Origin: a virus
Taxonomy: Duplodnaviria > Heunggongvirae > Uroviricota > Caudoviricetes
Direction: 5' to 3' (one strand)
DNA length: 64,000 bases
IMG/VR virus record: IMGVR_UViG_2721755711_000002
Position 1 is the stretch's first letter. The number at the start of each line of letters is the position of its first letter. The notes beneath the pieces were generated by a model. That model was given only the letters and a program-made list of their open reading frames with translations, made no database searches and was not told the DNA's origin. Below, in pieces: positions 54,547 to 54,878 of the stretch. Made by a program: the position numbers and the translations under genes.

Positions 54547-54878
54547 CCGTAATCTCCTTAAAAACAGGAGATTAAATTTTACCCATTCTTAATGTCCGTT
54601 CAAGTTCATACTTTACAACCGCGCCCAGTTGAGTATGATTAAGCGCATGAGGCGTCGAAACCTCTTCTCAGTGCGGTCACAACCAACCCCGTTAGTGTTG
54701 GATTTTTTATGCCTGCTATTTAGTGATGGCACAATGTGCGGTCACATCCCCGAACAATGTCGGGAGGGCGACGAATACAACACCCGAAAGGGGAATAAGT
54801 CCGCGGCCTCACTGAGCCGTTTCGAACCTCCCGGCTCCACTCCGATAGTGGAAATTCGAAAAAATCAGTGAGGTCGTT
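54547..54878. promoter_or_regulatory. divergent promoter region between cargo gene and antirepressor gene; candidate small regulatory RNA or leader
   Basis: Direct repeats GTGCGGTCACA (54671 and 54736) and ACAATGT; hairpin CCAAC...GTTGG with T6 tract (about 54682..54708); SD GTGAGG before ATG 54879. Confidence 0.35.

Follow-up and report, generated by a model that had tools for sequence, protein, structure and literature searches.

A stretch of viral DNA of 64,000 nucleotides (nt), called the window here (IMG/VR record IMGVR_UViG_2721755711_000002), contains a divergent intergenic interval between a gene for an LprI-family secreted protein and ant, a gene for an antirepressor (Table 1). Both genes belong to a prophage of E. 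coli, where they lie in its baseplate/tail cluster. The region shares 99.9% identity with E. coli F2_407_2_2, in which RefSeq annotates no RNA at this position; the RefSeq name for the ant product is 'antA/AntB antirepressor family protein'. An earlier note on this DNA had suggested that the interval holds a small regulatory RNA or structured leader for ant, comparable to the c4 RNA of phages P1 and P7. The suggestion of an RNA that acts on ant has gained support from a match to the Rfam family sRNA-Xcc1, from pairing, and from covariation in about 170 distinct loci, while the C4 model itself finds no match. The full-length sRNA-Xcc1 match, which that note had missed, is the key feature of the locus.

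Table 1. Features of the ant leader and the genes that flank it (positions in the window)
Feature	Position	Strand	Remarks
LprI-family secreted-protein gene	53800-54546	-	
Divergent intergenic interval	54547-54878		332 nt, between LprI-family gene (-) and ant (+)
Promoter-like site	54612-54639	+	-35 TTTACA 54612-54617, 16-nt spacer, -10 TATGAT 54634-54639; 10/12 consensus matches
Upstream target-mimic module	54647-54710	+	proposed analogue of P1 a1b1 and IsrK; four parts
Hairpin A	54649-54652 / 54661-54664	+	GAGG / CCTC; a1 in loop
a1	54655-54661	+	TCGAAAC
b1	54667-54673	+	CTCAGTG, then CGG
Terminator-like hairpin	54683-54687 / 54697-54701	+	CCAAC / GTTGG; loop CCCGTTAGT
T6	54703-54708	+	about 175 nt before ant ATG at 54879
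Spacer hairpin	54723-54745	+	GTGATGGCAC / GTGCGGTCAC; predicted fold; 3' arm is second GTGCGGTCACA copy
sRNA-Xcc1-family RNA	54759-54843	+	Rfam RF02221; proposed c4 analogue
P1 stem	54759-54767 / 54827-54835	+	9 base pairs (bp), closes around two hairpins
Hairpin 1	54768-54802	+	invariant core ATACAACACCCGAAAGGGGAA at 54775-54795
Hairpin 2	54803-54820	+	
b'	54807-54815	+	CCTCACTGA; hairpin-2 loop; complements b2 and, offset 1-2 nt, b1
a'	54819-54826	+	GTTTCGAA; junction from hairpin 2 to P1 3' strand; complements a1 and a2
3' tail	54836-54839	+	TCCA
Small hairpin	54837-54851	+	CCACT / AGTGG, loop CCGAT; directly 3' of P1 stem, sequesters CCA of tail
a2	54855-54861	+	TTCGAAA
b2	54865-54873	+	TCAGTGAGG; overlaps ant Shine-Dalgarno GAGG 54870-54873, 5 nt before ATG 54879
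ant, proposed controlled gene	54879-55448	+	189 residues; AntA/AntB antirepressor domain, Pfam PF08346, E 1.1e-25

The sRNA-Xcc1 RNA in front of ant

The match to sRNA-Xcc1 covers the model from end to end (positions 1-87 of 87) and scores 72.4 bits against a gathering score of 53, with an E value of 3e-11 in the 64-kb window. At gathering thresholds, the Rfam scan of the whole window returns two matches: this RNA and the ALIL pseudoknot of an IS3 element. When aligned to the Rfam consensus, the RNA shows the closing stem (the P1 stem), the two hairpins, and the core AUACAA-N-ACCCG-N-AAGGGGAA within hairpin 1. The E. coli strain EDL933 has an sRNA-Xcc1 locus that is annotated over an 89-nt interval and for which 40,293 transcriptome reads but 290 ribosome footprints have been recorded, a ribosome coverage value of 0.02 (PMC5331693). 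These counts fit a stable non-coding RNA.

sRNA-Xcc1 is widespread. With the invariant core as a DNA pattern, at least 120 phage loci were collected, from which 105 distinct RNAs were aligned; a second, independent set comprises at least 120 loci from bacterial genomes, 87 of them distinct. (Loci in both sets carry L-numbers.) RNAalifold, applied to a MAFFT alignment of the 105 homologues, recovered no more than a part of the structure, since the columns of the P1 stem were misaligned, and helices were instead found sequence by sequence. A P1 stem of 9-11 bp is present in 91 of the 105, with 51 different sequences for its 5' strand; an N-C-C tail comes after it, and the second tail position is C in 93 of the 105. 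Hairpin 2 always has a stem of 4-6 bp, and its loop is hypervariable and spans about 3-13 nt (6-10 in most cases). The small hairpin that takes in the tail is kept in the E. coli subgroup and shows a compensatory change in L064. The core of hairpin 1, AAUACAA-Y-ACCCG-N-AAGGGGAAU, is invariant in alpha-, beta-, and gamma-Proteobacteria and in Desulfovibrionaceae, including a GNAA (GNRA-type) tetraloop, and may be a protein-binding or tertiary-contact site.

Target boxes on both sides of the RNA

The loop of hairpin 2 (b') and the adjoining junction (a') make up a segment, S2 (54807-54826), that is complementary both to an upstream segment, S1 (a1 b1, 54655-54673), and to a downstream segment, S3 (a2 b2, 54855-54873), which reaches into the Shine-Dalgarno (SD) sequence of ant. 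Complementarity between the RNA and the ribosome-binding site (RBS) of ant, a check that the earlier note had proposed, is borne out by a b'/b2 helix of 13 bp, including two G-U pairs, and an a'/a2 helix of 7 bp. The S2 x S3 duplex has a computed energy of -35.0 kcal/mol, compared with -13.6 ± 3.1 for shuffled targets (0/2000); for S2 x S1, the values are -30.2 and -15.8 ± 3.3 kcal/mol (2/2000). A repeat finder returned the same complementary arms: 54804-54815 with 54865-54876 (the SD region of ant), 54807-54816 with 54667-54676, 54819-54825 with 54655-54661, and 54820-54831 with 54850-54861. The pattern TCGAAA-N(1-12)-TCAGTG occurs exactly 3 times in the 64 kb, as S1, as S3, and as the reverse complement of S2, whereas about 0.09 occurrences are expected. 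The whole leader, at its energy minimum (z = -3.8), has S2 and S3 paired across the SD sequence.

The upstream boxes a1 and b1 belong to a module of their own. A hairpin followed by T6, to which the earlier note had drawn attention, is indeed present, yet it is part of this target-mimic module and is not the antisense RNA, which is found 50 nt downstream of it. The assignment, which also takes in the first copy of a repeat, GTGCGGTCACA, follows from R1, a covariance model (CM) built from 49 upstream modules, whose single match in the 64-kb window spans 54647-54710 (49.4 bits, E 8e-7). In most of the other loci searched, too, R1 has a match upstream of the Xcc1 RNA. In general, a1 sits in the loop of a 5' hairpin; b1 comes about 5 nt further on and is followed by CGG; a second hairpin and about 7 T come next; and the Xcc1 RNA starts about 44 nt later. 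By strict criteria, this layout is present in 62 of 88 distinct loci, and 62 of 88 loci have a T-run after b1. Folds computed for each sequence predict both hairpins in the 45 modules listed. Covariation in the helices of the module is moderate, with 66-74% of cells paired (MAFFT and CM alignments) and 85% for the terminator helix (CM alignment), and the register of hairpin A differs between subgroups. The loop of the terminator-like hairpin, at 54688-54696 in the window and in the homologues, has a conserved CCCG-N-N-AG, which is unusual for a simple intrinsic terminator.

Transcription of the leader would start at about 54646-54647, just after the plus-strand promoter-like site, and it is at 54646-54648 that blastn conservation with Stx2a phages and with Vibrio anguillarum phages sets in. 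The sole promoter-like site on the minus strand (54603..54576) lies upstream of the ant leader and is directed away from it, and a consensus scan finds no internal promoter for the Xcc1 RNA between T6 and 54759.

Two direct repeats had also been reported for the interval. ACAATGT does occur twice, at 54731 and 54754, but this is the level of chance, since about three 7-mer repeats are expected in 332 nt. The 11-mer GTGCGGTCACA, found at 54671-54681 and 54736-54746, is not trivial, since about 0.01 exact repeats of this length are expected in 332 nt. Such a pair, at a spacing of 65 nt, is improbable by chance and, given the divergent promoter-like sites at 54576-54639, might mark the operators of a DNA-binding repressor that serves the promoters of both the lprI-like gene and ant, with the hairpin and T6 as an ordinary terminator. 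This explanation is very improbable: both copies lie downstream of the presumed transcription start, and each is accounted for by a different RNA element, the first by the 3' end of b1 with the conserved CGG and the second by the 3' arm of the spacer hairpin. Alignment of the subgroup, in which L011, L020, and similar relatives retain one copy without the other, led to the rejection of protein operators as the source of the repeats, and the repeat as such is thus not conserved. The spacer hairpin itself shows compensatory changes in L020 and L070.

A LexA-type SOS box was also considered as a regulator of ant and rejected, as none lies within 54547-54878. In the whole window, CTGT-N8-ACAG (at most one mismatch) occurs 35 times, compared with 18.5 ± 4.3 expected (0/100 shuffles), with none in the region studied.

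If the boxes work as an antisense pair, their changes should be matched from locus to locus. A first test, based on the duplex energy of the whole hairpin, gave -13.8 kcal/mol for cognate and -12.0 kcal/mol for non-cognate partners (0/2000 permutations). The ranks of individual loci were noisy because GC-rich stems bind spuriously, and the test was replaced by one that takes the longest exact Watson-Crick complement of the loops in cognate and non-cognate combinations (about 85 distinct phage loci and 87 genome loci). In the phage set, b' finds 6.86 nt in the 90 nt downstream of its own RNA but 4.61 nt downstream of others; 5000 permutations gave a mean of 4.63 (standard deviation 0.10, maximum 5.0). 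Against the 160 nt upstream, b' finds 7.07 nt (non-cognate, 4.92); the corresponding values for a' are 7.14 (4.85) upstream and 6.56 (4.48) downstream. The bacterial-genome set repeats all four signals, with cognate/non-cognate values of 6.37/4.84, 7.38/5.42, 5.64/4.25, and 7.20/4.95. Over the two sets, the observed value was never attained by a permutation. Among the listed loci with a clear b2, the downstream match of b' ends within the SD sequence or abuts the ATG. In the subgroup of E. coli and Stx phages, leaders are about 90% identical outside the boxes, while b1, b', and b2 change jointly, as do a1, a', and a2 in L036 and L067. Read from the aligned leaders, these joint changes are three-way compensatory changes.

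The covariation bears on a further explanation, in which sRNA-Xcc1 acts mainly in trans on unlinked host or virulence genes and its position before ant is incidental. The accessible part of the literature on Xanthomonas and Xylella does describe sRNA-Xcc1 as a trans-acting RNA that is controlled by HrpG/HrpX and has many predicted targets, none of them defined there, and some loci in Xanthomonadaceae lack a2 and b2 downstream. Still, wherever the RNA is both single-stranded and variable, it covaries, in two independent sets, with the adjacent RBS and with the upstream boxes; no conserved seed remains for a common host target; and the class of the downstream gene is strongly non-random. It is thus quite improbable that unlinked genes are the main targets.

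Comparison with c4, IsrK, and P4 CI

The closest known counterpart is the c4 system. In the P1 record, promoters P2c4/P1c4 are followed by a1, b1, the 77-nt c4 RNA, a2, b2, icd, and ant. In P1 and P7, as proposed for the window, one transcript runs from the promoter through a1 b1, about 90 nt, and a structured RNA of 77-85 nt with a' and b' to a2 b2 at the next RBS. The RNA follows a1 at a spacing of 88 nt in P1 and of 92 nt in the window. In both RNAs, a stem closes off a pair of hairpins; b' occupies the loop of hairpin 2 and a' the junction, and the 3' end is an N-C-C tail. In both cases, the function under control is an antirepressor. Two elements of the functional definition of a C4 RNA are present in the leader: an RNA whose a' and b' match a1 and b1 upstream and a2 and b2 downstream, and a downstream target that covers the RBS of the next open reading frame (ORF) and, here, its SD sequence. 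Even the boxes are similar: b1 and b2 of P1, GTTAGTGCGG and GTTAGTGAGG (the latter followed by the start codon), resemble CTCAGTGCGG and TCAGTGAGG of the window, the cores being GTTAGTG-CGG / GTTAGTG-AGG in P1 and CTCAGTG-CGG / TCAGTG-AGG here. The C4 consensus has a CCaCC tail, and the annotated 5' end of mature P1 c4 directly follows UAU. Unlike C4, in which hairpin 1 is a plain UUCG hairpin, Xcc1 has a longer hairpin 1 with the invariant core AAUACAAYACCCGNAAGGGGAAU.

The upstream module also has known counterparts. In Salmonella, Gifsy-1 IsrK (STnc1160) is a short leader RNA with a leaky terminator, beyond which read-through yields a translationally silent mRNA for the antirepressor-type protein AnrP; there is complementarity between the short RNA and a processed RNA downstream (PMC4825925). 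The module at 54647-54710 occupies the same position, at the opening of the leader, and has the same architecture as isrK and c4-a1b1, namely target boxes set between a 5' hairpin and an intrinsic terminator (hairpin plus U-run), upstream of an antisense RNA. When applied to P1, Rfam finds C4 (68.8 bits), c4-a1b1, and a sub-threshold isrK, and the Xcc1 model does not appear in the list of matches at E <= 1 over the P1 c4 region. The P1 isrK match spans the a1 hairpin, b1, and the terminator hairpin with its U-run, and thus an isrK-type element is an a1b1 module. Activation in trans by the short RNA has been demonstrated for IsrK; here, it would hold by analogy. The CI RNA of satellite phage P4, as far as it is summarized in PMC4825925, is an immunity RNA that matures by processing of the leader of its target operon, and its seqB has complementary targets on both sides, seqA upstream and seqC downstream, as with sRNA-Xcc1. 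According to the same summary, P4 CI causes premature termination of transcription and controls replication genes, in contrast to the occlusion of an RBS proposed here. An arrangement like that of the sar RNA of P22, on the opposite strand across the start of ant, was not found, as conserved structure and covariation lie on the plus strand.

Family membership, the complementarities, the three-way covariation, the position of b2 on the SD sequence, and the link to antirepressor-type genes together indicate that the intergenic region is probably an immI-type (c4-like) RNA control leader for ant. In such a leader, transcription would begin at about 54646 and would first yield a short module that carries the target mimics a1 and b1 and ends in a weak intrinsic terminator (T6). 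Read-through would produce the sRNA-Xcc1-family RNA, of 81-85 nt, and then ant. Pairing of b' and a' with b2 and a2, on and just upstream of the ant SD sequence, would stop ribosome binding and keep the antirepressor silent in the lysogen. By analogy with c4, IsrK, and P4 CI, RNase P may cut the RNA from the leader at an AAU|G junction, guided by the P1 stem and the NCCA tail, which resemble the acceptor stem and 3' NCCA-like end of an RNase P substrate; the same comparison suggests that the freed RNA could also act in trans, one conceivable target being a superinfecting phage whose boxes are identical. Competition for a' and b' would come from the a1/b1 module. As a short, terminated RNA, the module might lift repression, in the manner of IsrK, which in its short form activates translation on its read-through mRNA (PMC4825925); alternatively, a1/b1 in the nascent leader might enable the RNA to bring about termination, which is how P4 CI acts.

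Several points weigh against a c4-like leader. The evidence for this locus consists of sequence comparison and computed folds. Although the Rfam search that the earlier note had advised places sRNA-Xcc1 above its gathering score, C4 (RF01695, clan CL00128), c4-a1b1 (RF03163), and isrK (RF01394) give no match in 54300-55100 even at E <= 10, a permissive scan that adds nothing but noise to sRNA-Xcc1. On the a1/b1/terminator region of P1, R1 gives a weak match that is in register (11.5 bits, E 0.015 in 501 nt). Because the three models fail, kinship with c4 rests on architecture, short similarities of the boxes, and this one weak match; homology of the upstream module to P1 a1b1 was considered and set aside, and what is claimed is a similar architecture, not family membership. 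Unlike P1, in which icd precedes ant, the window has no icd-like ORF for translational coupling: ant begins 36 nt after the end of the Rfam match at 54843, with no ORF in that gap, and b2 lies on the RBS of ant itself. The terminator-like hairpin is weak (-4.7 kcal/mol, with a 9-nt loop) and was missed by a simple terminator scan. The c4 model gives no account of why the hairpin-1 core is invariant. Six loci in Xanthomonas and Rhodanobacter (L126, L158, L186, L132, L142, and L194) have covarying a1/b1 but no a2/b2 within 260 nt downstream, so that their target or way of acting must be a different one, and occlusion of an RBS is not the sole mode of the sRNA-Xcc1 family. Finally, the full leader folds in cis with S2:S3 paired at -86.3 kcal/mol, compared with -71.7 when the compact Xcc1 fold is enforced, a gap of 14.6 kcal/mol.

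Since the full leader prefers S2:S3 in cis, action in trans is not required. The leader might act purely in cis, with b' a' folded onto a2 b2 to hide the RBS, a1 b1 as the alternative partner in an ON state, and neither processing nor action in trans. The collinear arrangement of three segments close together is as such a leader would have it, and for the isrK leader, alternative structures in cis have been demonstrated experimentally (PMC4825925). The compact fold, with its P1 stem, hairpin 1, and N-C-C tail, is nevertheless strongly conserved although simple sequestration does not need it. In addition, the RNA of the EDL933 locus accumulates, abundant and untranslated, over its annotated interval of 89 nt (PMC5331693), and c4 and P4 CI, insofar as the P1 annotation and PMC4825925 describe them, are processed and act in trans. 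Moreover, the cis and trans modes can coexist. A leader that works exclusively in cis is a less likely but serious alternative to the c4-like leader, the preferred explanation.

Probable controlled genes across the family

In the homologues, about 40-50 nt separate the Xcc1 RNA from the start of the next same-strand gene. This gene is usually of antirepressor type (AntA, KilA-N, Bro-N, ORF6N, P22_AR_N, or Rha) and sometimes encodes SymE. Pfam domains in the phage set (96 proteins) include P22_AR_C (15), KilA-N (14), Bro-N (12), P22_AR_N (9), AntA (8), ORF6N (7), and Rha (5); those in the genome set (72 proteins) include Bro-N (10), Rha (8), P22_AR_N (5), SymE toxin (5), ORF6N (3), KilA-N (2), and AntA (1). 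Two such positions have been remarked on in the literature: one paper places sRNA-Xcc1 upstream of an ORF6N gene in APSE phages, and a preprint places it upstream of symE in Xanthomonas integron cassettes (10.1101/2025.06.18.660453). The RNA of Xanthomonas belongs to the same covariance-model family as that of the window, and in the symE-type loci examined, b2 likewise lies at the SD sequence, of symE; the window differs in that its RNA belongs to an E. coli prophage, stands before an AntA gene, and has clear a and b target sites. In L182, L187, and L195 (Xanthomonas and Lysobacteraceae), the downstream gene encodes a SymE-family toxin, with b2 at its SD sequence and a2 about 6 nt past the RNA. 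At these three loci, the Xcc1 RNA may take the role of the antisense RNA SymR as antitoxin to a SymE cassette.

Some loci hold more than one unit. In L074 (7498-9493), a tandem array with a period of about 381 nt has several units, each with an a1b1 module, an Xcc1 RNA, and a short Bro-N-like ORF, and the b' loops are all different. The array also holds one isrK + C4 unit, and it resembles the five clustered copies of sRNA-Xcc1 reported in Xylella fastidiosa Temecula1. In L067 (2349-3141), an Stx2-type phage, and likewise in L003 (phage GER2), a unit of isrK, c4-a1b1, and C4 lies about 500 nt upstream of the Xcc1 unit. The Xcc1 leader of L067 is 84% identical to that of the window, and one phage thus carries both RNA control systems in series. 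In 18 other loci, Rfam finds Xcc1 in every one, and isrK and c4-a1b1 solely beside a true C4. Since these two elements accompany C4, the Xcc1 and C4 units are parallel families that are able to share one phage, as in L067 and L074.

Around the leader itself, the LprI-family gene has a GC content of 30-33%, compared with about 45-52% in its surroundings, and together with ant it has the look of a moron pair whose insertion separated the baseplate J gene from the tail gene that follows. A minus-strand ORF at 55424-55819 (131 residues as listed, with a shorter coding sequence in RefSeq) converges on ant, and the 3' ends of the two overlap by about 25 nt. The ALIL pseudoknot, at 3848-3964 on the minus strand, is full length (Rfam RF01497, 121.5 bits) and is the frameshift element of an IS3-family insertion sequence. 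A tRNA or tmRNA fragment or an attachment site was also considered, and ARAGORN finds nothing in the window.

Parts of this picture are already known: the RNA family is catalogued, and c4, IsrK, and P4 CI share the same logic. No statement of sRNA-Xcc1 as a c4-type regulator with a1b1/a2b2 sites was found in the searchable literature; the closest is the 2025 preprint, which notes the position before symE and suggests a 'divergent regulatory mechanism' (10.1101/2025.06.18.660453). A broader and more tentative idea, which stays short of an even chance, is that the whole sRNA-Xcc1 family might be a programmable switch in three parts, the decoy a1b1, the antisense a'b', and the target a2b2, that gates antirepressor-type and toxin genes. 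The two short, hypervariable boxes would then form an immunity-specificity code, and compensatory changes at all three sites would drive its evolution; tandem arrays, for instance the five units of L074 or those of Xylella, would be multi-specificity RNA immunity arrays; and in SymE cassettes, the RNA would be the antitoxin in a type I-like toxin-antitoxin system that has gone unrecognized. As framed, the idea covers Ant, KilA-N, Bro-N, ORF6N, Rha, and SymE in phages, integron cassettes, and islands of Proteobacteria.

For the family, the finding gives sRNA-Xcc1, which had been published without a defined target, a concrete mechanism that is open to testing, in which a leader with its own target mimic has the RBS of the following gene occluded in the manner of c4, and identifies the nucleotides that set its specificity. 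It would connect P1 c4, Gifsy-1 IsrK, and P4 CI, which have been described separately, to a fourth RNA family, and would help to explain how prophages and cassettes can safely harbor genes for antirepressors and SymE-type toxins. It also suggests a rule for annotation, by which an Xcc1 RNA with matching boxes marks a silenced antirepressor or toxin gene. In this window, the ant moron within the tail-gene cluster is probably under RNA-based immunity control.

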